From NCBI GenBank assembly GCA_021107975.1, contig JAIORT010000600.1:1-29693 (forward strand): DNA of 29,693 nt. The letters run 5' to 3'. The stretch comes from Bacteroidales bacterium (lineage in GTDB: Bacteria; Bacteroidota; Bacteroidia; Bacteroidales; JAADJA01). A program made the translations under genes and the position numbers. Numbering within the stretch: the first letter of the stretch is position 1; each line of letters begins with the position of its first letter. Shown here piece after piece: positions 15,702-28,269 of the stretch. The notes below the pieces were generated by a model. The model ran no database searches. It was not told the DNA's origin and saw nothing but the letters and a program-made list of their open reading frames with translations.

Positions 15702-16103
15702 TTATTTTTCAAACTCATTATTAATCTTTGTGGCAATTTCAATAAATTCTTCCTCTGTCATTTCAACTTTAGGTTTACTGAAATCAATATCATTTCCGGT
15801 TCCTTTAAGCGGGATCAAATGGATATGGGCATGAGGTATATCCAATCCATACACAACCATACCGAGCCTGATGCATTTTACACTTTTCTCAATAGCTTCG
15901 GAAACTTTTTTAACAAAGTCAAAGAAACCAGTATATGTTACGTCATCCAAATCAAAGAGGTAATCAACTTCCTTTTTAGGAACAACAAGGGTATGTCCCT
16001 CAGTTAGAGGATTTATATCAAGGAATGCATAATAATTGTTATCTTCGGCTACTTTATACGAAGGAATCTCTCCATTAATAATTTTTGTAAAAATGCTTGC
16101 CAT
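15702..16103 (-). CDS. HIT-family nucleotide hydrolase
   Basis: SIFTKIINGEIP, AFLDINPLTEGHTLVVPK, histidine triad HAHIHLIP; start overlaps the greA stop (TAATG). Confidence 0.93.
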   Translation of the reverse strand: MASIFTKIINGEIPSYKVAEDNNYYAFLDINPLTEGHTLVVPKKEVDYLFDLDDVTYTGFFDFVKKVSEAIEKSVKCIRLGMVVYGLDIPHAHIHLIPLKGTGNDIDFSKPKVEMTEEEFIEIATKINNEFEK

Positions 16104-16576
16104 TATCTTGTTATTTCAATAATTTTAAAAGTAATAATTCCTGCCGGCACTTTTATTTCAGCGGTTTCGCCAACTTGTTTTCCAAGCAATCCTCTCGCTA
16201 TTGGTGAGGTTACTGATATTTTACCCGACTTAAAATCTGCTTCCTGTTCAGGAACAAGCGTATATGTCATTTCAATCCCGTTTTTTAGGTTTTTGATTTT
16301 AATTGTTGATAAAAGCAAAACCTTTGAAGTATCTAATTTAGATTCATCAAATATTCTTGCATTCATTACCAACTCCTGCAATTTTGCAATTTTTAGTTCC
16401 AACAATCCCTGAGTATCTTTGGCGGCAGTATATTCAGCGTTCTCCGACAAATCACCTTTATCTCTTGCTTCAGCTATTTGCTTGGAAATAGCCGGTCTCT
16501 CGACCCTGATGAGTTGCTCAAGTTCGTCTTTTAAGTTTTGCAATCCTTCTTTTGTATAATAATTAACTTTCGTCAT
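16103..16576 (-). CDS. greA: Transcription elongation factor GreA
   Basis: ARDKGDLSENAEY, ISVTSPIARGLLGK. Confidence 0.97.
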   Translation of the reverse strand: MTKVNYYTKEGLQNLKDELEQLIRVERPAISKQIAEARDKGDLSENAEYTAAKDTQGLLELKIAKLQELVMNARIFDESKLDTSKVLLLSTIKIKNLKNGIEMTYTLVPEQEADFKSGKISVTSPIARGLLGKQVGETAEIKVPAGIITFKIIEITR

Positions 16577-16603
16577 GTTACTACTTTCAGTTAAAAAAAA
16601 ATA

Positions 16604-16636
16604 TAAAAAGACCCTTGAAATTAAGGGTCCTTTTAT
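16604..16636 (-). terminator. Intrinsic terminator downstream of the porV-like gene and upstream of greA
   Basis: gaccctt (16610-16616) / aagggtc (16623-16629) stem, followed on the minus strand by TTTTTATATTTTTTTTT; also T-flanked on the plus strand. Confidence 0.8.
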
Positions 16637-16674: not shown

Positions 16675-17739
16675 TTATAAGGTAAATCTAATCCCTATAG
16701 AATGAGTATTATTAAAATGATCAGTAGGTCTAAATGAATAATCTACAGCAAAAATACTTCCTTTTTCTTTATTTAAAGGAACCTGAACAGTAAAACCACC
16801 GCTAAATCCTTTGTTTGCATTTGATCTTTCCGGATCGTCAATATTCTTCCCAATGCCTTCTTCGTACGAATATGCCGCTCTCAGCAATACGTAATTTTTA
16901 TACGAGTATTCCCCGCCAACAATTAATTGGTCTTTTGTAAAGGAGTTTGATGCAAAATTTCCTGCAATTGTAAATCTCGATTCGTCGAATAAAAAGTCAT
17001 AGGCTACTCCAATATTCAATTGTGCAGGTAATTCAAAAGCCGCTCCTCTCTGTGTCATAGTATATTTATTATCTTTTCCGGCATACAGCGTTTTTAATGA
17101 ATATCCGTCGCCTGAGAACTTCATTTTTGGTCCCCAGTTTCTTAATGAAACACCAAATTTAACGTTTTCCTTCTCACCGGCAACATATTGAATGCCGGCG
17201 TCAATTGCAACACCCTGAGCAGAAGCATCCGAGATTGATTCGGAAATAATTTTCAGTGTCAATCCCCCGTAAATGCTGTTAGAGAATGCTTTTGCATAAC
17301 CAAGTGCAATATTAAGATATCGTGGAGAGAAAGTACCTATGCCTCCTTCCGGTGAACCAACTGTTGTTTTCTCAATTTCACCAAAATTCATTGACATAAC
17401 GCTTACACCAATTACACCTGCATCGCTAACTCTCGCAGTAATACCAAACGACATAAGCTTAATGTCAGCTCCTCTCAACCAATCAGTATAAGAGAATATT
17501 AACTCTGTTTTCTGAGTAAATGCAATACCTGCAATATTGTTAAACATTCCTTCTAATCCCTGCACATTTGCAACATTCACTCCACCCCATCCCGAACTTC
17601 GTGCCCACGGATTTATGAGAAGTTCTGCCGCTCCTGCCTCACCTGACCTGTCTTTATTACCGGCATTGACTTTATGTACGGGAAACGCTATAATACTTAT
17701 TAAGAATATTACACCTAAGTATTTATAAAAATTCTTCAT
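16675..17739 (-). CDS. PorV/PorQ-family outer-membrane beta-barrel (T9SS PorV paralog)
   Basis: Signal peptide ending VNA; ELLINPWARSSGWG resembles the PorV N-terminal L.I.P.AR..GMG motif; alternating barrel strands; ends THSIGIRFTL. Confidence 0.8.
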   Translation of the reverse strand: MKNFYKYLGVIFLISIIAFPVHKVNAGNKDRSGEAGAAELLINPWARSSGWGGVNVANVQGLEGMFNNIAGIAFTQKTELIFSYTDWLRGADIKLMSFGITARVSDAGVIGVSVMSMNFGEIEKTTVGSPEGGIGTFSPRYLNIALGYAKAFSNSIYGGLTLKIISESISDASAQGVAIDAGIQYVAGEKENVKFGVSLRNWGPKMKFSGDGYSLKTLYAGKDNKYTMTQRGAAFELPAQLNIGVAYDFLFDESRFTIAGNFASNSFTKDQLIVGGEYSYKNYVLLRAAYSYEEGIGKNIDDPERSNANKGFSGGFTVQVPLNKEKGSIFAVDYSFRPTDHFNNTHSIGIRFTL

Positions 17740-17784
17740 ACTAATATATTTTTAATGTTTCATTAATTATTCTTTCACAAAATA

Positions 17785-20700
17785 TTAGAATTCGTTGAAG
17801 TCTTCAACTCGTAATGAACCAAACCATTTAATAATCTTTTCATTGCCGGTAGTTTCATCTTTTACATGTATTAAATAAATACCACCTGCAATAGGTATTC
17901 CTGCGTGGTTTTTTAAATCCCAGTCAATGAATGTAACCGGATCATCTTTTGAATATTGCCTTATTAATGACCCATTCACATTATAAATTGTTACCGTACA
18001 TTTTTCCGGCAGGTAAGTAATCTTGATCCTGTTATCTAAAGGAACCCTTTCATACGCTGAATATGCGTAATAGGGATTCGGAACAACATTTATCATGTCG
18101 AGATCATCTTCAGCTTTCGTTTGGTTATAATATGTAGTGGCAATTCCTTCGGTTGAAAAACTATATAAAGGGTAGTATTTATTTTCACCTTCGCCATAAA
18201 CCGAATCAAGCGGTTCTGAATAATACCTTTTATAAGGTTTCCCTATTCTTATCCTGATTCTTGCTTCATTCGACAACCACTCTTCATTGTCAACCGATAA
18301 AGGAATACCTGCGTACATTACACTGGCATATATTAAACATCCATATTGCTGATAAAGTACAGGTGGAATAGTATCAATAGTTTTTACTAATGTTTTACCT
18401 GCATCATAAGCCGGGAAATCATATTTCAAATAAGTGTTTTCAATTGTACCGCTACGCATTATATATACATAATGCTTTCCGCCAAATAAAGGAAAAGCAG
18501 AAGGCATGTCAAAATATGATGATGTCGGATTGAAAAGCATGTCTCTTCCGTTTTCACCTACTAACCATGAATCTTCACCAAACATGATATTTAACCTTTC
18601 ACCGGTTTCAAGGTTAATGGCATATCCGGGGAACCAGCCCATACCGTAAGGATGAATATAATTCGGATCATCCGGATTATCACTTGAAGGAACATCCGGT
18701 TCTGCAGGATTTCCGTCTTTATCTAAAGAAGGTGAACGCCTTAATAAAAATCTATCGGCATTACCTTCGGATAAAGTAACATCCGGGCACATCTCAATAA
18801 CAGGACTTCTCGTCCATTTCGATTTATCCGGCGTTAAAACAATATCAATGCTGGAAATAGCTTTTAATCCCCCACTCCCAGATTTGGAAATTTTATCGAA
18901 AGCAGGAGCACATCCTGACATATTCTGATCAACGGCAGCACACATACAATATGGCGCCCAGGTACCGTTTACAATTTTTTCATAAGCCTCATCCGGATCC
19001 AATGGGTTGGGGGGACTGCCTGACATTTGCCAATCATCATTACCCGAATTTTGGTCATCCTTGTATGTTCCGGAACGAATCCAATTAAGCGGATTGGAAG
19101 GAACGTCATAATCAGACACACCGCCTAACCATTGTCTCGAACTGTCGGCATATTCAATGGAAAATTCAATCAATCCGTTATTCTCAGCAGGTATTTCATA
19201 AATAGCTTCACCGACGCTGGTATTCATTGCTCCTATTTTATATGGACCGGGTTCGAAAACAGGACCGAATGTTATAGAAATACCGAGTTCGGGTAAAAGT
19301 TGCTCATAATTAATATTTGTACTTGTATCGGAAACATATTTATTCCCGGTATTCAAATCTGTTAATACCCATTTTCGGGTTGCATTTACACCAATAGTAT
19401 CACCTCCGGGGCGCATTCCTTCGGCTCCTGTTACTTTGTGATATGTATAATGGAAAAACGCAGTATCAAATTTTAGGCTGTAGTTAGCACCTTTTACGTT
19501 TAACGGGTCAATAACTCTAATATTTACCGGGCCATTGCCATATTTGTAAATCGCGTTATAAGCTAATGGATAGTCCGGGTCACCATAATTATTATAAATT
19601 GTATCTCCCTCCGGAGTAATTTCTTTAATTACTGATAAAGCAGGAGGTTGATTTAAAATTTCTTCTATGGTTTCTTCTGATAATTCCAATACCATTCCTC
19701 CATTGCCCTGTCCTTCAATTCTTGTAATTTGCGGTCCGTCTCCATATTCCGAATTCATAATAATTCCATTAATAGATTTGTGGGGGATGGCAGTATATAA
19801 CTGGATATTTTTACGACCTGCCAGATACGGTTTTTTCTGTCCGTCAAGCTTTGTAGGATCGGTTTGGTCATAATCCTTAAAGTTATTATAACCATAAGCC
19901 AAAACACTATAATAATATTGCTTATGATTAACAAGCGTTTTGTTTTCGGTTGCAAACCGATCCTCGAATATTCTGAATGAATGGACAACTCCGTTATCAC
20001 CTCCATCAACTTCAACAACCGGAACATTGGCTCCGATTGCCTGATCATAATAAAAATTAACAAGTTGCCCTACACCGTTTTTAATACTAAACTCAGCTAC
20101 CAATCTTACTTTATCCGGATCATGTCTGCTTTCAGATATTGTAACAGTTGCATCCTTTAACTGGAATATCTGGTATCCCTCAAAATAGTAATAGGGATCG
20201 TACGCCTCCGGTGTGCCTATCAAAGAGTCAGGTGTTTGAGCTTTGATCTGTGGATCAAGTTCTTTATAAGATTCTTTATAATTATTAGATGTTTTGCTGT
20301 TCGTAATATATACTATTAACTCCTTGTCAAGTTCCCGGAAAGTTAAATCAGGTGCATCGGGACCATTTATAACTTTAAAACAATTATCGAAAAGTGCCTG
20401 GCATTTATCATCAACTACACGAAGTAATTCAACAGATGCCCATGCACCTCCTGCAATTGCTCTTGCCCATGGAATACCGACTGTAATATAATTAACAGCG
20501 CCCGGCTGCAATGTAAACGGACCGGCAGATTGCATAAATCGTCTGTCGTAAGGATTGTTTCCTGTAACTTCTTCTGTCCAGTAATAATCGTTTTGGTTAA
20601 AACCTCCGTTGGGAGGAATGCCTCCCGTACCCCAGTTACAAGGATCGGTATCACCGGGGAACATAAAATCACATTCAGGTCCTAATGCGCCTGAATTAAT

Positions 20701-22197
20701 GTGTGCATTTCCTCCATAAAGCATCCTTGAATTATCTTTCCAAAATCCTCTTAAATAGTTATAATATTCCGGGGCAATTCCCGGGTCTCCTTGGGGACCG
20801 CCTGAATTATTATGATATACGAACCTTCTCATTCCATAACGTTCATCATCAACAATGCCGTTTCCAAAGTTAACTCCGTTAATAGCCTCGGCTCTTATTT
20901 TAAATAATCCTGACTGAATACTGTCAGGCGGACCGTAATACCTAATTATCTCTGTACCATGAAAACTGACAATGCTGCAATCACCATCGAAAGAAGGTCC
21001 TAAAAGTCCGTCGCCATAAAAAGCCGGGTTATCGCATGTATCAGGGTCCATGTAAGGTCCCTGGAAGAAGTCAACGCCAATGGCAGGAGGCTGATCACCG
21101 TAAGCTTCAGGCTCTCCTCCTCCATCAACAGGTGTACCGTTATAACAATAACCCAAGCCCCTGTTAACATCACAACCCACGTAATCGTCCCATGCATAAC
21201 CAAGATCGGTATCAACCCACGGACTAAAATAAGTTTGAGTTAATACATAAGTTGAACGGTTTATTATTTCATAACTATAAAATGTCATGTTATTAATTTC
21301 ATCATTGGTTGCAAATCCGAATGCCTGTGCACGAATTTCCATACCAATTGCAGCCCCGTTTGTTTCTGTGTGGAAATTTCCTTTATCATTAAATATCCAC
21401 CACAGGGTTTCATCACCTTTTAATACCTGGTCAACGAGTATCCCGCCAAAATAATCAGGATAATAAAGTTCTGTCTCCATGGTAGGTGTTGGAACATAAT
21501 TAGGATCGCCTGCATAATTAAGCGGACACAGCTCATTAGTGATATCATAATAAGGATAGTCGCCGCTGCCCGGGTCATAATCACCATCGCCATCAACATC
21601 TTTAAAAGGCGCTAAATAATAGCTTTGTCCTTTTGAAATATCACCATGAGCCGGATACTCAAGAATAGAATTGGGTATTGAATAGCCTGGGAAATCTTCA
21701 GCCTTGTTGTCGCTGTTAAACCAATCAATAAATTCATCAATCTCGGCACGGGTAATCCTAAAGAATTTATCCCATTCCGAGCAAGTTTCTTCATCAATAG
21801 CCGCAGTACCATCAATAGTTAAGGGTCCTGTCCAGTAATCTTGTCCTATCTGGCGGTATCTTAATGCAGCTAATTTAAGCTGGTTATTGATATCAAGTCC
21901 GCCGATCCATAATGAACCGGAAAATAAGGATGTTGCCGATCCGTTAGCAGGAATAAAATACTGAGCGCCTATACCGCCCGGTAAATCCCACCACATGTCG
22001 CCACCTGTATTAATTCGTGCTCTTACATTGTTCACATGCAAAAACCTGTATCCTGACGGTGCTCCACAACCGGCTGCCGTGGATTTTATACTTTCGGTGC
22101 TTTTAAAACTGCCGAACTGAAATTCTCTGGCAACACTCAGGCGGGCAACAGATAGACAGAACAGCAAAATAAACAGAATTCGGAATATATTTCTCAT
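17785..22197 (-). CDS. Large secreted protein with a T9SS type A-like C-terminal domain; function unknown
   Basis: SPI signal ending SVA; C-terminus INVVPNPYY...IKITYLPEKCTVTIYNVNGSLIR...WDLKNHAGIPIAGGIYLIHV...KIIKW; Dx[DN]xDG motif DVDGDGDYD; FN3-like segment (YFEGYQIFQ...YYYSVLAY). Confidence 0.8.
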   Translation of the reverse strand: MRNIFRILFILLFCLSVARLSVAREFQFGSFKSTESIKSTAAGCGAPSGYRFLHVNNVRARINTGGDMWWDLPGGIGAQYFIPANGSATSLFSGSLWIGGLDINNQLKLAALRYRQIGQDYWTGPLTIDGTAAIDEETCSEWDKFFRITRAEIDEFIDWFNSDNKAEDFPGYSIPNSILEYPAHGDISKGQSYYLAPFKDVDGDGDYDPGSGDYPYYDITNELCPLNYAGDPNYVPTPTMETELYYPDYFGGILVDQVLKGDETLWWIFNDKGNFHTETNGAAIGMEIRAQAFGFATNDEINNMTFYSYEIINRSTYVLTQTYFSPWVDTDLGYAWDDYVGCDVNRGLGYCYNGTPVDGGGEPEAYGDQPPAIGVDFFQGPYMDPDTCDNPAFYGDGLLGPSFDGDCSIVSFHGTEIIRYYGPPDSIQSGLFKIRAEAINGVNFGNGIVDDERYGMRRFVYHNNSGGPQGDPGIAPEYYNYLRGFWKDNSRMLYGGNAHINSGALGPECDFMFPGDTDPCNWGTGGIPPNGGFNQNDYYWTEEVTGNNPYDRRFMQSAGPFTLQPGAVNYITVGIPWARAIAGGAWASVELLRVVDDKCQALFDNCFKVINGPDAPDLTFRELDKELIVYITNSKTSNNYKESYKELDPQIKAQTPDSLIGTPEAYDPYYYFEGYQIFQLKDATVTISESRHDPDKVRLVAEFSIKNGVGQLVNFYYDQAIGANVPVVEVDGGDNGVVHSFRIFEDRFATENKTLVNHKQYYYSVLAYGYNNFKDYDQTDPTKLDGQKKPYLAGRKNIQLYTAIPHKSINGIIMNSEYGDGPQITRIEGQGNGGMVLELSEETIEEILNQPPALSVIKEITPEGDTIYNNYGDPDYPLAYNAIYKYGNGPVNIRVIDPLNVKGANYSLKFDTAFFHYTYHKVTGAEGMRPGGDTIGVNATRKWVLTDLNTGNKYVSDTSTNINYEQLLPELGISITFGPVFEPGPYKIGAMNTSVGEAIYEIPAENNGLIEFSIEYADSSRQWLGGVSDYDVPSNPLNWIRSGTYKDDQNSGNDDWQMSGSPPNPLDPDEAYEKIVNGTWAPYCMCAAVDQNMSGCAPAFDKISKSGSGGLKAISSIDIVLTPDKSKWTRSPVIEMCPDVTLSEGNADRFLLRRSPSLDKDGNPAEPDVPSSDNPDDPNYIHPYGMGWFPGYAINLETGERLNIMFGEDSWLVGENGRDMLFNPTSSYFDMPSAFPLFGGKHYVYIMRSGTIENTYLKYDFPAYDAGKTLVKTIDTIPPVLYQQYGCLIYASVMYAGIPLSVDNEEWLSNEARIRIRIGKPYKRYYSEPLDSVYGEGENKYYPLYSFSTEGIATTYYNQTKAEDDLDMINVVPNPYYAYSAYERVPLDNRIKITYLPEKCTVTIYNVNGSLIRQYSKDDPVTFIDWDLKNHAGIPIAGGIYLIHVKDETTGNEKIIKWFGSLRVEDFNEF

Positions 22198-22244
22198 AAC
22201 TTAGTATAGTTTTAGTTTCTATTCAAATAATTATGTTTTATAAA

Positions 22245-25200
22245 TTAAAAGTTAAACATTATACCGAGACGAATTAGCCTCGGACGGCTATAATGATAGG
22301 GACTATTTATTCTGAGGGCATAAAGATCGCGGTATGATTGCGGATCGATTTGTTCGTTGATCTCCCTTTGCCACTCAGCAGCAGCAAGATATCCATCATC
22401 GCCAGGATTACCTGTCGCCGGATAAACTCCTAATACGTTCTTAACATTAAAGAGATTTAATACCTGTAAATAAATATTGAAATAAGTTCTGTTATCACCG
22501 CTTCCGTGTTTCAGATAAAATTCCTTATCAAGTCTCATATCAACCCTGAATTGCCAGGGTAACCGGGAGCCATTCATAGTTCCTTTCAGAATTCGTGTGG
22601 CGGGCGTAGTTATTGCGTTGATATTTTCCTGGGCAGTATATGGAGTTCCCGAACCACCGGTAATTGTAAAGTTAACCCCCATATTTTTCAATATCTGCAC
22701 GGCTTTCTCGCTGTCAGTCCCTTTGTTCCTTGTAATTGTCGGACCGTTATAATCTTTACCCTCTCCATACCTGTAGTCTATAGTTATGTTGAAAGCATGT
22801 CTTCTGTCCCAAGCCAATGGATTAGTAGTACGAAGGTTTGGTAAACCCGATGCTACTAAAGCAGCAGCAGTTGTACTGCTCGATCCTGTTCCGTCGGCAA
22901 ACTGTAAAGTATAACTTGCATTTATTCGTGTATTACTGTTTAATCGTCGCTGGTCATAAGTTACGGTTAATCCTTTAACAGTTCCAAAGTCAATATTATT
23001 AAAAGATGTATAATCTCTCGGATAGGCGCCGTTAAACCGGTATATTTGGATGTCATCACGCATTTCACGATAAAATGCAGTAAGCTTCAATGAAGATTTA
23101 TTGGTTAGTTTTTGCTGAAATCCTAACTCGTAGTCAATTGTCTTGGTGGGTTTCAGGTTAGGATTATTAATATTTCCTCCAATAGTATTAATAAAATAAT
23201 AAGAAGAGGGGTCAGCCGCTACATTAGTCATCGGTCTTTGAGTTAATACGTCATAGTGAGCAAAGAACAAGGCTTCATCTGAAATAGGGAATGAGAAAGA
23301 TATCCGTGGCATAACATTCCACTGCGGCTCATAATCCTTAAATGCGCTGTAATTTATGAATTCCTGGTTAGGATCAATTAAAAGAGGTGAAACACCTGAA
23401 CCGACGTCAAGCACATTAGGGTCCTGAATTTCAACACCATCAGCGTTATACCAGGTAAATTCATTTCTGTATCCTGTTATTATGGTAGGGTCGCTCACAT
23501 TATCAACGTAAACAACATAATCATTCCCCATGTTTCCGGGGTGAGTTACTGTTTTCCCACCTACCTCTGTAACTTCATTAACCGTATAAGCCGGGTAAAA
23601 TAAAAACGGGTCTTTTAAAACAGGCTGGTTTGCATCAAAACGATCGACACGAACACCGACATTAAATATAAGGTCGCGGAATGCAAATTTGTCTTGTATA
23701 TAACCCGCCATATAAATAGGCTCATAAGCCGGCATCGGTCGTAAATAATCTCCGTTTTCATCTTTCTTTGTAAAAAAATCATTCCAGCTCGGCTTACTCG
23801 TTAATTTATTTCCTTTATAATCATATCCATAGTAATTAGCGACATAATGACCATCATTCAATAATTCATCGGCGCTGAACATATCAATCGAGTATAAATC
23901 TTCGCCAACATTAATTGTATGCATATTCCCATCCTTGTCGTAATACTGGATAGACTTTTTTTCCATATCATAAGAGTCAATCAAAATAAAATCAAGTCCT
24001 TTTTCATCAAGCCCAAGCTTGTTCCTGAGATTTTTATCAAAGGCAGTTTGAGTTAATTCGTCGTATTTTCTATTATATATAATAGTATCCATAAAAATAC
24101 CATCATGATATATCGCAATTGGATTATCAACATCTAACTGTCCGATGTGGAAATTGGTTAAAGCTCTCATTCGGGTCCAAAGGTTATTTGCATCATAATA
24201 ATACCCCCTGTTCGTCCTTTGATTGTATTGAAAACCAAATTTAATTTCATTATTTCCAATATCGGCAGCAGCAGAAGCATTTATTGATATTTGTGTATTA
24301 TTGCTTTCCGCATATACTGTTTGTAATGAACCGGGTGCTGCCCACAATCCATATACATTTGGCGGTCCCTGTCCATTAGCCAAACCTCCTGATAACCACA
24401 AATCATCCAAATTGTCAATTAACCCGGGATATAATTCGTAAATCTGCCTTGTATAATTTGCCACATAAGGATTATAGTCAAATTTTTGAAAGATATAAGC
24501 TGTATCATAATCCCAGCTATTTAACAGCCAAACATTTTCATATTCTTTATCACCGATGGTTTCATCGCCTAATTCAAAGGTTGGGGTTTTATATGAAGAA
24601 TATTTTCCCAGGTAACCATATTCAAACAGATTATCTTTATGATAAGGATCCATTCTCCGTGTACGATACTGAGAATAGTCTGCCTGAATGCTGTAATAAA
24701 CATTTTTTATTACTGAAGCGCTTTCACTGCTTGAAGGAAATCTCTGTGTAAATTTTCCAAAAACCCTCCATGTATTGTTCATTGATAAATAATTCCTGTC
24801 ATAATTGAACATGGAATGGTATAAGCTGAAATTTTTTCCATCGTTATAGATATACTGACCGCCAAAAGTAAGGTTAGTATATTTTGTTGTTCTTATATCG
24901 ATTTTACCGGATAAGTTAATGCCATACCTGCTTGTATTTGGTGTAGCTTTTTGGTTTTCCAGATCGCTCTCTCTGACAAATCCGGTATTAGTAAAAGTAC
25001 CTCCGCTAGCCATACCTGTCGGACGAAGAGGGCTTTCTTCAAGATTTCGTAACACATCATCCTCTGCCACCCATACACCATTGGCAGTTGGTCTGCTGTC
25101 TTCCTGATAAATTAAATCGCCTGAGATAAAATATCCTAATAATGATGTTTGCTCCTCCTTTTTTCCTTTGATTAACGGACCTTGTACACTGAATCCAAGT

Positions 25201-25946
25201 CTGCTGTATCCGAATGCATCCAAAAATTTAGAAGACTGTAGTTCAATACCGGCTCCGAACTTACGTGATGGACCTTTTGTAGTTACATTGATAATACCAC
25301 CTCTTGCATCGCCATATTGTGCCGGTAAACCACCAAGGTAAACAGCCACCTGTTCAATAGCGGATTGAGGCAGGGTGGACGAACCTAACACCTTAATCCC
25401 ATCAATATACATAACTGTTTGATCGGACCGGGCGCCCCTGACACTTCCTCTCTCACCGTCAGCAGAGAACACACCTCCTACACTGGTAGCAATTGAATTT
25501 GCATTCCGGTTAGGCATTTTCTTAATTTCTTCTGCCGTTACGGTACCTCCTGATACCGTTTCATCCTTGTTAATAAGAGGTATCTTATAGTCGGAAACAA
25601 CGATTTCTTCGAGTTGCGCTGCCGTAGATTCCATTTCTATATCATAGAAACGGATCTGATCGGCATTGATAACCATACCTCTCACTAAAACCGTTTTATA
25701 GCCCACATAAGTAGCTTTAAGATCGTAAGTTCCGGGAGGGATCGGTTTTATAATATAATTTCCCTCAAAATCGGAAGTTGCACCGCCTACCAGCGTTCCA
25801 CCCAATTCAAGAATAATATTTGCAAAAGGAACTGGCTGCCTGGTTTCTTTATCTACAATCTTACCCTTAAGTGACCCGGATTGTGAAAAGACTAACAGAT
25901 TAGCGGTTAAAATAAACCCAATTGTTAATAGTAAATTTTTTAACAT
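22245..25946 (-). CDS. TonB-dependent receptor with an N-terminal carboxypeptidase-regulatory-like domain
   Basis: Signal peptide; GKIVDKET..PVPFANI...SDFEGNY.I..IPPGTYDLKATYVGY; TonB-box-like LEEIVVS; plug VRGARSDQTVMYIDGIKV; NPNLKPTKTIDYELGF; C-terminal Phe (LGIMFNF). Confidence 0.9.
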   Translation of the reverse strand: MLKNLLLTIGFILTANLLVFSQSGSLKGKIVDKETRQPVPFANIILELGGTLVGGATSDFEGNYIIKPIPPGTYDLKATYVGYKTVLVRGMVINADQIRFYDIEMESTAAQLEEIVVSDYKIPLINKDETVSGGTVTAEEIKKMPNRNANSIATSVGGVFSADGERGSVRGARSDQTVMYIDGIKVLGSSTLPQSAIEQVAVYLGGLPAQYGDARGGIINVTTKGPSRKFGAGIELQSSKFLDAFGYSRLGFSVQGPLIKGKKEEQTSLLGYFISGDLIYQEDSRPTANGVWVAEDDVLRNLEESPLRPTGMASGGTFTNTGFVRESDLENQKATPNTSRYGINLSGKIDIRTTKYTNLTFGGQYIYNDGKNFSLYHSMFNYDRNYLSMNNTWRVFGKFTQRFPSSSESASVIKNVYYSIQADYSQYRTRRMDPYHKDNLFEYGYLGKYSSYKTPTFELGDETIGDKEYENVWLLNSWDYDTAYIFQKFDYNPYVANYTRQIYELYPGLIDNLDDLWLSGGLANGQGPPNVYGLWAAPGSLQTVYAESNNTQISINASAAADIGNNEIKFGFQYNQRTNRGYYYDANNLWTRMRALTNFHIGQLDVDNPIAIYHDGIFMDTIIYNRKYDELTQTAFDKNLRNKLGLDEKGLDFILIDSYDMEKKSIQYYDKDGNMHTINVGEDLYSIDMFSADELLNDGHYVANYYGYDYKGNKLTSKPSWNDFFTKKDENGDYLRPMPAYEPIYMAGYIQDKFAFRDLIFNVGVRVDRFDANQPVLKDPFLFYPAYTVNEVTEVGGKTVTHPGNMGNDYVVYVDNVSDPTIITGYRNEFTWYNADGVEIQDPNVLDVGSGVSPLLIDPNQEFINYSAFKDYEPQWNVMPRISFSFPISDEALFFAHYDVLTQRPMTNVAADPSSYYFINTIGGNINNPNLKPTKTIDYELGFQQKLTNKSSLKLTAFYREMRDDIQIYRFNGAYPRDYTSFNNIDFGTVKGLTVTYDQRRLNSNTRINASYTLQFADGTGSSSTTAAALVASGLPNLRTTNPLAWDRRHAFNITIDYRYGEGKDYNGPTITRNKGTDSEKAVQILKNMGVNFTITGGSGTPYTAQENINAITTPATRILKGTMNGSRLPWQFRVDMRLDKEFYLKHGSGDNRTYFNIYLQVLNLFNVKNVLGVYPATGNPGDDGYLAAAEWQREINEQIDPQSYRDLYALRINSPYHYSRPRLIRLGIMFNF

Positions 25947-26088: not shown

Positions 26089-26529
26089 TTAGATATAAGG
26101 AGCATTTAAAATTTCTGAATATATAACAGCTTTTCTTAAATTAAAATCCTCTATGTATTTTTTGATTTCTGATTTTTCTTCAATATCGATATACGAGAAC
26201 TCCTCCTTCTTAAAGCTTACACGTTGTCCTTCCTGTAAAAAGTCCGATAGTTCTTCACGTAAAAATGGCTGGGGTTCCTGTTTTTTAACCTCCTCTTCAT
26301 AAACCTCAACTCTTTCAGGTTCATTTTCAATCGGTTCAATAAATGATTCATACGGTTGAGGATGTGGGGACTCTTCTCCTAATAATATTTGTTCTAAGAA
26401 GGAAGCACCCGACTTTTCTTTTTCCCCGGAAGGCTGTGGATTTTTAGCATGTTTTTTCTTCTGCCCTTTACTATATATTGTATAAGCCAGCCAAATAATC
26501 CCGATTATTATGGGTAACAATTCTTCCAT
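26089..26529 (-). CDS. Small N-terminally membrane-anchored acidic protein with a C-terminal LRKAVIYSEIL motif (possibly YqfB-like)
   Basis: TM segment LLPIIIGIIWLAYTIY; Glu/Pro-rich linker; C-terminal helix FNLRKAVIYSEILNAPY. Confidence 0.7.
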   Translation of the reverse strand: MEELLPIIIGIIWLAYTIYSKGQKKKHAKNPQPSGEKEKSGASFLEQILLGEESPHPQPYESFIEPIENEPERVEVYEEEVKKQEPQPFLREELSDFLQEGQRVSFKKEEFSYIDIEEKSEIKKYIEDFNLRKAVIYSEILNAPYI

Positions 26530-26599
26530 AAAAGCTAATCAGTTAACATCATTTTAAAATTGTGCGTAAATATAATATAATATTTTTGAAAAAAAAGAG

Positions 26600-26637
26600 A
26601 AAATCAGTTTTCGGTAGAATAAAATCAGTTTTCGGTA
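26600..26637. promoter_or_regulatory. Perfect 17-bp direct repeat at 21-bp period; candidate transcription-factor (LytTR-like) site
   Basis: aaaatcagttttcggta at 26600-26616 and 26621-26637. Confidence 0.6.
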
Positions 26638-26718
26638 AAAAATTAGTGATTGTATATTGAATATTTTCTATTGTATTCTGACCTATCATAAATATGGTTG
26701 ACAAAAAACACCAAATTT

Positions 26719-27444
26719 TTATTTTAATTGTTGATAATACTCCATGGTTCTTATGTTTTCATTAATCTCGTCGGAAGCTATCTCACCGTCAATCAGCCTG
26801 ATTATGCGATGAGCATGTTGTGCAATATCTTCCTCGTGAGTTACTACAATAATTGTATTTCCGGCTTTATGAATTTTTTCAAGCAAACCCATTATCTCAA
26901 TGGAGGTTTTCGAATCGAGGTTACCGGTAGGTTCATCTGCCAGGATAATAGACGGATGATTTACCAAAGCCCTTGCAACAGCCACCCTTTGCCTTTGACC
27001 GCCGGACAGTTCGTTCGGTTTATGCTCCATACGGTCAGACAAATTAACATCTCCAAGAACTTCCTCAGCCCTTTGCAAACGATTTGATTTGTTAAAGCCT
27101 GCATAGATAAGCGGAAGTATAACATTTTCAAGCGCTGTGGAACGAGGCAGGAGGTTAAATGTCTGAAAAACAAATCCTATTTCCTTATTCCTGATTTCAG
27201 CCAAATGGTTATCGTCTAACTTACTTACATCTTTGCCATTTAAAATGTATTGTCCACCAGTGGGAGTGTCGAGACATCCTAAAATATTCATCAACGTTGA
27301 CTTTCCGGAACCTGAGGCACCCATTAAAGCCAAAAATTCATTTTTGTTTAAAGTCATCGAAATCGAACGCAAAGCCTTTACAACCTCTGTGCCGACTTTA
27401 AAGTATCTCTTTATATCGACAAGTTTAATAATTTCTTCATTCAT
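26719..27444 (-). CDS. ABC transporter ATP-binding protein (LolD/MacB-type NBD). Start moved from 27468 to 27444.
   Basis: Walker A GASGSGKS, signature LSGGQ, Walker [13 protein letters not shown]-loop VTHE; the -7 box at 27466-27473 overlaps the longer start. Confidence 0.93.
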
Positions 27445-27465
27445 ATTAACTAATTTTGTTATGAG

Positions 27466-27473
27466 CAAATATA
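27466..27473 (-). promoter_or_regulatory. -7 promoter element (TATATTTG) for the ABC ATPase
   Basis: Exact TAnnTTTG on the minus strand, 21 nt before ATG 27444. Confidence 0.6.
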
Positions 27474-27483
27474 GAAACTATTA

Positions 27484-28269
27484 TCAAAACCTGATAATAA
27501 AATCTTCTTTGCTTAATTCTTTTTTTAAAAAAACCAATCCCATAAAAAAAATATCTACGGTTAATGTTACTGAAGCATGATTTTGAACATACTTCCAGGC
27601 AGCTTCCATTCCCTTTGACCAATGAATATCATCAAAAATTAAAACAGAATTGTTATTTACTTTTTGCAGTATTTGTTCAAAATATTTAATTGTCGGTTCC
27701 TTCCTGTGGTTCCCATCTATAAAAACGAAATCTATCTTATCGGTTCTATTAATAACTTTTGGGAGTTCATCATTAAATTTTCCGGTTATTAACTCTATAT
27801 TTTTAATATTAAGTTTTCTGAAATTTTCAGTAGCAACAGAAGAAATATTCGGACATCCCTCTATCGTTATCACTTTCCCGTCAGGGTTTGCCAGTGCCAT
27901 ATAAGCAGAACTTAAACCTAACGATGTACCAAGTTCAAGAATTGTATGGGGGTTAAAATATTTTACCAGCCTGTAAAGCAATCTGCCGTATTTTAATGGC
28001 TTGGAAGAATTTTTTGCAATTTGTTTGATTTTTCTTTGCGATCCTTTATCAACTGCCGACCCAGCGCCAAAGTCTTCTATATTAATGGTTTTATTATTCC
28101 TTAAAAGTTCTTTTTTAAGATTTTCGACTTTTATATAATCAGAGGTTTTCGATTTGTCTTCAAAAACCCTGGTAATCAGATCAAAAAGAAAGGGTGGGTG
28201 GACATCATGCTTGGTTTGTGAAAAAAAACGATATGCTAAGTATTTTCTGATAAAACTAAAATTTTGCAT
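27484..28269 (-). CDS. Class I SAM-dependent methyltransferase (O-methyltransferase/Methyltransf_24-like)
   Basis: ILELGTSLGLS (motif I), VITIEG, FVFIDGNH, IFDDIHWS. Confidence 0.88.
   Translation of the reverse strand: MQNFSFIRKYLAYRFFSQTKHDVHPPFLFDLITRVFEDKSKTSDYIKVENLKKELLRNNKTINIEDFGAGSAVDKGSQRKIKQIAKNSSKPLKYGRLLYRLVKYFNPHTILELGTSLGLSSAYMALANPDGKVITIEGCPNISSVATENFRKLNIKNIELITGKFNDELPKVINRTDKIDFVFIDGNHRKEPTIKYFEQILQKVNNNSVLIFDDIHWSKGMEAAWKYVQNHASVTLTVDIFFMGLVFLKKELSKEDFIIRF

Follow-up and report, generated by a model that had tools for sequence, protein, structure and literature searches.

A conserved trio of a TonB-dependent transporter, a predicted type IX-secreted protein and a PorV/PorQ-family barrel in Bacteroidota, a candidate SusD-free uptake unit

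Three adjacent envelope genes were analysed in a 29,693-nucleotide stretch of DNA from a Bacteroidales bacterium (assembly GCA_021107975.1, contig JAIORT010000600.1, positions 1 to 29,693; the whole stretch is called the window below). They encode a TonB-dependent transporter (P0001), a secreted protein carrying a type IX secretion system (T9SS) C-terminal domain (CTD) (P0002, the cargo) and an outer-membrane barrel of the PorV/PorQ family (P0003). The trio is a real and ancient module. We found no description of it in the literature on PorV paralogs, TonB-dependent transporters and the T9SS, and as far as this search shows it is undescribed. An earlier note on this DNA had proposed a SusD-independent uptake or surface system, and we give an even chance to the reading that the trio is a SusD-free unit for substrate capture and import. 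The genes lie as follows.

25946..22245, minus strand: P0001, TonB-dependent transporter of 1233 aa (open reading frame and Pfam match)
22197..17785, minus strand: P0002, secreted protein of 1470 aa (translation of the open reading frame)
17739..16675, minus strand: P0003, PorV/PorQ-family barrel of 354 aa, triad-specific subfamily (open reading frame and NF033709 match)
16636..16603, minus strand: intrinsic terminator at the end of the operon (stem of 14 pairs, loop of 6, T-run)

The layout is as first described: all three genes are on the minus strand with gaps of 47 and 45 bp, and they are closed by a single strong terminator, whose hairpin begins 38 nt past the stop codon of P0003. The absence of a lipoprotein was also borne out. 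By reading, the signal peptides of P0001, P0002 and P0003 are ordinary ones that lack a lipobox, and no SusD-like open reading frame was found in the window, including beside P0001. The window has a G+C content of 34%. It comes from a Bacteroidales-type metagenome-assembled genome (MAG), which is fragmented (3.8 Mb in 1001 contigs, 92% complete), and the DNA of the window is met again in metagenomes from marine sediment, cold seeps and vents.

The co-occurrence of the three genes, a check proposed in the earlier note, was surveyed in species-representative genomes. The order transporter, cargo, barrel was observed in essentially all of 79 related loci, contig permitting, and the identities of the three proteins co-varied across them (for example 50/50/51%). 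Of 20 more distant loci, 18 likewise had the trio, among them compact Rhodothermia versions whose cargos of about 1100 aa show many short loop deletions and no missing domain. Because the same order recurs in essentially all of the 79 loci and in 18 of the 20 distant ones, the linkage is not due to chance. A relative was carried by 64 of the 401 genomes sampled from the phylum, and by none in the two largest sampled families (0/87 and 0/28). Among the named carriers are Rhodocaloribacter litoris, which is in culture and whose cargo is WP_166978514, and MAGs from Saprospiraceae and Sphingobacteriales. SprA was present in 5/5 distant carriers.

P0003 passed the PorV/PorQ family model NF033709 (150.7 bits versus a cut-off of 90, profile positions 4-325 of 326), and stayed under the equivalog models of both PorV (NF033710, 73.7 of 250) and PorQ (NF033711, 81.4 of 220). 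Its match to PorP_SprF was weak (E 2.3e-4) and below cut-off. The gene upstream of it encodes the 1470-aa cargo and not PorU. The proposed phylogeny was built with 67 proteins, and all the triad-linked barrels (n=35) grouped together (100/100), separate from the PorV clade (100/99) and the PorQ clade (100/97). This group divides into Rhodothermia and Bacteroidia, as vertical descent predicts. Besides P0003, the genome has a canonical PorV (511 bits), a second PorV, PorQ (367 bits) and two divergent members, six family members in all. Since a separate canonical PorV and a PorQ are present, P0003 is a dedicated paralog, as had been claimed, and the idea that it is the only, housekeeping porV of this genome was ruled out.

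The T9SS set of the genome comprises SprA, PorZ, two PorU, two PorV and PorQ. The PorV genes are on contigs C38 and C161, in the latter case adjoining a flexirubin tyrosine ammonia-lyase. Two full-length PorU sortase genes (1354 and 1305 bits) stand in tandem on contig C20 (C20:159-7365; L136, L137), and the attachment complex may be duplicated in this genome. A second cargo-barrel pair is found on contig C247 (C247:602-3011; L005, L147), with no transporter beside it. The cargo is endonuclease/exonuclease/phosphatase-like and ends in a type A tail, and the gene after it encodes a divergent barrel of the PorV family.

P0002 was folded with AlphaFold2 on our own alignments, which gave two models (pLDDT 82.8 and 83.9). 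Two features are located at its C-terminal end.

17788..18126, minus strand: T9SS C-terminal domain, PorZ/PorU-like, residues 1358-1470 (structure and profile matches)
17788-17826, minus strand: family-specific tail extension, residues 1458-1470, about 13 residues past Lys 1457 (alignment of orthologs)

The CTD is closest to that of PorZ (5m11; Z 11.4, rmsd (root-mean-square deviation) 2.5, 89 aligned, 26% identity), followed by that of PorU (6za2; Z 9.4) and those of RemZ, RemA and NucA (Z 7.4-7.6). Foldseek (E 4.8e-7) and the NCBIfam model of the PorZ C-terminus (E 2.6e-8) also pointed to PorZ, and sequence profiles agreed with PorZ/PorU. These matches accord with the view that the tail is of the retained type: the tails of PorZ and PorU are uncut and stay bound to PorQ and PorV (PMC10202324). 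The likeness is confined to the tail. P0002 scored 32.8 bits versus 260 on the PorZ model NF052228 and matched only its tail (profile 653-752), and its body is predicted to fold as a supersandwich and not as the two N-terminal beta-propellers of PorZ.

The tail missed the sequence cut-offs for type A (TIGR04183, 21.2 bits versus 23; PF18962, Por_Secre_tail, 15.3 versus 27), and it has the structural hallmarks of that type, that is, the beta-sandwich CTD fold at the extreme C-terminus together with the conserved Lys. Judged by sequence, it appears to be a divergent type A sorting domain, just under the threshold. K1457 is nearly invariant among 35 orthologs and central in the predicted tail-barrel interface, and the Lys in type A tails contacts PorV (PMC10994853). 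The extension past Lys 1457 is found in 35/35 orthologs, and its last residue is Phe, Leu or Tyr.

The binding of the tail to the barrel, which the earlier note had put forward for modelling, was predicted with P0003 residues 27-354 and the P0002 tail 1340-1470. The complex scored 0.91, and the best of 3 controls scored 0.00. Among solved complexes 58 of 80 came up to this mark, and among mismatched pairs 2 of 110 did; these counts are rough since our own alignments were used. The runs share at least 88% of contacts, and the pLDDT of the partner is at least 74. PorV-CTD complexes have already been solved, and the pass may reflect likeness to the known binding mode. The model thus supports a tail that could bind as known T9SS tails do, and it does not speak for specificity towards the private barrel over the housekeeping PorV/PorQ. 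The earlier note had named three findings that would undo its proposal, namely that the genes do not co-occur, that P0003 is the only porV, or that no interaction is predicted; we looked for each, and none was found.

The family of P0002 is unnamed, with more than 7273 relatives, and the best 120 matches are 58-91% identical over the full length. Its invariant positions are rich in Asp, Trp and Arg. The body hit no Pfam family, and the same is true for the cargos of the sister cassettes in Rhodothermia described below. One domain was recognised in it.

20371..22068, minus strand: galactose-mutarotase-like beta-supersandwich with large insertions, about residues 44-609 (VIA-align on the AlphaFold2 model)

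When this predicted structure was compared with 48,161 chains by VIA-align, the best match had Z 18.8, rmsd 3.1 and 253 aligned residues. The best matches were N-terminal supersandwich domains of dextran dextrinase and of GH94, GH15, GH65 and GH116 enzymes, aldose epimerases and the P1 domain of YidC; in the GH enzymes and their relatives the matched N-terminal domain is non-catalytic. The supersandwich emerged only with this exhaustive aligner; Foldseek against the PDB gave weak matches to the N-terminal half (TM about 0.2) and nothing clear. No catalytic domain was recognised in P0002, and its middle part (residues 889-1330) had no match, for which we claim no new fold. The C-terminal half matched solely unnamed T9SS-tagged or hypothetical proteins in the AlphaFold database (AFDB) clusters and the ESM Atlas. 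Searches by sequence, with the single protein and with family profiles, found no solved-structure relative of the body, and only the tails of PorZ and PorU were matched.

Further copies of these parts were observed. A secreted protein clipped by the contig end (C83:3-2300; L145) has a copy of the supersandwich with 46% identity to P0002 residues 48-612, preceded by an additional N-terminal part. A second cargo paralog occurs at L087:11417-15394 and also in L015, L016, L026, L072, L073, L089 and L095. In some cases it is the next gene after that of the barrel, and in others it stands apart and has neither a transporter nor a barrel of its own. This suggests that such paralogs are exchangeable partners of one transporter-barrel pair.

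P0001 is a genuine TonB-dependent receptor, as had been read from its translation. It has a signal peptide, a carboxypeptidase-regulatory-like extension (residues 25-117; CarbopepD_reg_2, E 2.3e-15), a plug (residues 131-217; PF07715, E 1.2e-7, 32.6 bits versus a cut-off of 23.9) and a large putative barrel ending in ...RLGIMFNF, whose last residues are a typical outer-membrane ending. A TonB-box-like strand lies between the extension and the plug.

25587..25610, minus strand: TonB-box-like strand EEIVVSDY, residues 113-120 (position and pattern only)

The pattern L-x-x-V-x-V-x-x-Y-x-V-P-L-I is common to 33 orthologs at this place. A profile made from these orthologs matched solved receptors for siderophores and colicins over the plug and the first strands of the barrel (E 1e-14). 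Plug was found in 31/33 of them and the barrel model PF00593 (TonB_dep_Rec_b-barrel) in 13/33 (best E 3.6e-26); P0001 itself had no barrel match in Pfam. Another barrel model, PF25183 (OMP_b-brl_4), which we take to be the Oar-type barrel, matched 2/33. There was no SusC/RagA model among the NCBIfam matches of P0001 at E <= 0.1, and by these profiles P0001 is not of the SusC/RagA type.

The best argument for a capture-and-import layout, an indirect one, comes from the sister cassettes of Rhodothermia, whose context resembles polysaccharide utilisation loci. These genomes have 14-16 PorV-family genes each, most of which follow a gene with a type A-like tail. A P0001-like transporter is located 1-7 kb upstream on the same strand for 11 of the 16 PorV-family genes in R. 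litoris, and for 8 of the 14 in a second genome. Six cassettes were read fully (five from R. litoris, one from the second genome), and each consisted of a transporter, a CTD cargo and a barrel. T9SS-tagged hydrolases were found downstream in 3 of the 4 cassettes scanned (Glycoamylase PF10091, GHL10 and Amidase_2); two of them are glycan-active and one is an amidase. All the sister cargos share the tail type of P0002, and two share the supersandwich core.

Variant cassettes were also noticed in Rhodothermia (L131, G128:C1:513182-517084; L151; L152). In one, the transporter is directly followed by a PorV-family barrel and then by an NHL-like lipoprotein; in others, a protein of about 470-500 aa with an outer-membrane-type C-terminus comes after the barrel.

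We propose that P0001, P0002 and P0003 may form a single outer-membrane unit. P0002 would reach the periplasm by Sec and pass the outer membrane via the T9SS. Its PorZ/PorU-like CTD would be left uncleaved by PorU, would not be linked to anionic lipopolysaccharide (A-LPS), and would stay docked on the extracellular face of P0003, which would be a specialised shuttle and anchor for it. The result would be a large beta protein of carbohydrate-binding type held at the cell surface beside a co-expressed transporter. There, P0002 may capture or present a glycan or glycoconjugate, the probable substrate, for import energised by TonB, and would thus play the role that SusD-type lipoproteins play for SusC.

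Several observations weigh against this proposal. The supersandwich is widespread and non-catalytic in most of the enzymes that bear it, and its presence is no proof of sugar binding. Contact between P0002 and the transporter is suggested by gene linkage and by nothing else. Some genomes (L087, L089, L095) have extra cargo copies with no transporter of their own. The trio stands among housekeeping genes (greA, HIT, purF) and not in a polysaccharide locus, and its conservation is unusually high for a nutrient-capture protein. In this genome, the two-component system that stands beside the trio in some relatives is not adjacent to it.

Three other explanations were weighed with these points. Cargo and barrel may cooperate alone, P0002 being an adhesin, enzyme or shield anchored at the surface in the manner of PorQ, and the transporter would then be merely co-transcribed and serve unrelated import. 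We consider this unlikely, though it is the alternative that fits best. The tail-barrel contact is the sole interaction with model support, pairs without a transporter exist (contig C247 of this genome and several Rhodothermia paralogs), and the extra cargo copies just mentioned would suit it as well. However, the transporter is kept beside the pair phylum-wide with matching divergence, and a Rhodothermia genome has the three-part layout 8-11 times, with different cargos, which is hard to explain without a functional tie.

It is still less probable that the trio serves envelope housekeeping, either as a PorZ-like carrier of a surface glycan (a precursor of lipopolysaccharide (LPS) or capsule) or as an accessory of T9SS attachment, with the barrel pair as a platform comparable to BamA-BamG-BamH. 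The very high conservation would be expected of such a function (58-91% over 1470 aa for the best 120 matches), and the trio is usually single-copy with housekeeping neighbours, greA and a HIT-family gene being kept downstream in 63-69 of the 79 loci. The tail is PorZ-like, and PorZ binds A-LPS, according to PMC8545088. There is also the precedent of BtBAM, in which a FadL-like barrel holds a surface protein beside a large barrel (PMC12578637). In contrast, the trio is not core: it was found in 64 of 401 genomes and in 0/87 of the largest sampled family, and it was not found in many other T9SS-bearing lineages. The genome also has its own PorZ and PorQ, and import is indicated by the partner being a TonB-dependent transporter with a plug.

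That the transporter works outwards like Oar of Myxococcus, helping to export or insert P0002 with the small barrel as receiver, seems very improbable. In its favour, Oar, a transporter that is TonB-dependent and has a carboxypeptidase-regulatory-like domain, is required for PopC secretion (according to PMC6434023), and the PF25183 barrel model was hit by two orthologs. Against it, the cargo has a bona fide T9SS tail, SprA is present in every carrier checked, and docking of the tail on a barrel of PorV type, in the way of T9SS substrates, is predicted; a second exporter would be unnecessary.

The surroundings of the trio were also examined. One further gene upstream of P0001 may be connected with it.

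26089..26529, minus strand: small membrane protein of 146 aa, 142 bp upstream of P0001 and co-oriented (translation)

This protein has an N-terminal helix, a Pro/Glu-rich middle and a conserved C-terminal end (...AVIYSEILNAPY). It had no Pfam match, and homologs occupy the same position in a cluster of about 20 related loci. It is possibly part of the unit. Its layout loosely resembles a truncated TonB.

Downstream of the trio, greA and the HIT-family gene occupy 15702-16576 on the minus strand. The start of greA is 27 nt past the T-run of the terminator, and its promoter must therefore share sequence with the terminator or with the last part of the barrel gene. On the upstream side nothing is conserved across the 79 loci. 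No Rfam match to a riboswitch or other RNA family was found in the window, and no RNA run was listed among the public runs carrying the window DNA.

A Reg_prop/Y_Y_Y histidine kinase and a LytTR regulator stand directly upstream of the trio in 19-21 of the 79 loci. In Bacteroides, sensors of this type are used to detect glycans in the periplasm. The window is syntenic with its closest relative, L008 (93.9% over 15.1 kb), as far as about 26667. Beyond this point the relative has the LytTR regulator and the Reg_prop/Y_Y_Y kinase; in the window, genes for an ABC ATPase and a methyltransferase and a polysaccharide-synthesis gene follow. This genome has its orthologs of the two-component genes at the very end of contig C159. 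A chimeric contig was ruled out: a 1629-nt contig from another run spans 26156-27783, and because this independent contig bridges the junction, the junction is a genuine rearrangement.

In 52 of the 79 loci, the strand opposite to the transporter encodes, 0.6-5.5 kb upstream of it, a lipoprotein of about 150-165 aa with conserved Cys residues. An example is L007:472-921 (minus strand). It is outside the gene content of this window and had no Pfam match.

More tentatively than for the trio itself, we suggest that in Bacteroidota and related lineages TonB-dependent transporters can obtain a surface partner by a second route, which needs no lipoprotein: the T9SS would deliver the partner, and a private barrel of PorV/PorQ type beside the transporter would hold it permanently. 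The trio of the window would be the ancient, vertically inherited founder of this layout, with one conserved substrate. The new element is the fixed union with a TonB-dependent transporter; the anchoring principle is already known from PorZ-PorQ and PorU-PorV, and reviews already speculate that cognate PorV-like barrels shield tails from cleavage. If the three proteins form one complex, the T9SS also assembles nutrient-import machines, beyond releasing enzymes and adhesins. The PorV/PorQ paralogs, 14-16 in some genomes, would then be mostly private anchors of such machines, many "hypothetical" outer-membrane genes of Rhodothermia and of sediment, rumen and digester Bacteroidota would be explained, and the SusCD paradigm would be broadened. 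Cultured carriers such as R. litoris make the idea directly testable.

The closest known counterparts are PorZ-PorQ and PorU-PorV of Porphyromonas gingivalis, in which a T9SS-exported protein keeps its CTD and is held by a barrel of the PorV/PorQ family, as may be the case for P0002. The gene order of CTD protein followed by barrel is also that of porU-porV. Unlike these pairs, the trio has a barrel that is neither PorV nor PorQ and forms its own clade, and it includes a TonB-dependent transporter; P0002 has neither the beta-propellers of PorZ nor the peptidase domain of PorU, and its tail is extended by about 13 residues.

With SusC/SusD (RagA/RagB) and other complexes of a transporter and a surface lipoprotein, the trio shares a transporter with an N-terminal extension beside a putatively surface-exposed partner. 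It also resembles polysaccharide utilisation loci in that sister cassettes adjoin secreted glycan hydrolases and the Reg_prop/Y_Y_Y sensor is adjacent in many relatives. In contrast to SusC/SusD, there is neither a lipoprotein nor a SusD fold, P0001 lacks the SusC/RagA signature, and the partner, whose role as a lid is putative, would be secreted by the T9SS and kept in place by a third protein.

The type B CTD cargos of Flavobacterium johnsoniae are likewise followed by the gene of their own specialised FadL-like barrel, PorP/SprF, a shuttle that decides the destination of the cargo (PMC12618676, PMC9143113); the tail of P0002 is instead type A-like and P0003 is of the PorV/PorQ family. Finally, BamA-BamG-BamH has a large barrel with a small FadL-like barrel alongside, and extracellular loops hold a surface protein (PMC12578637). 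This likeness is architectural only, as the proteins are of other families and their role is outer-membrane protein assembly.

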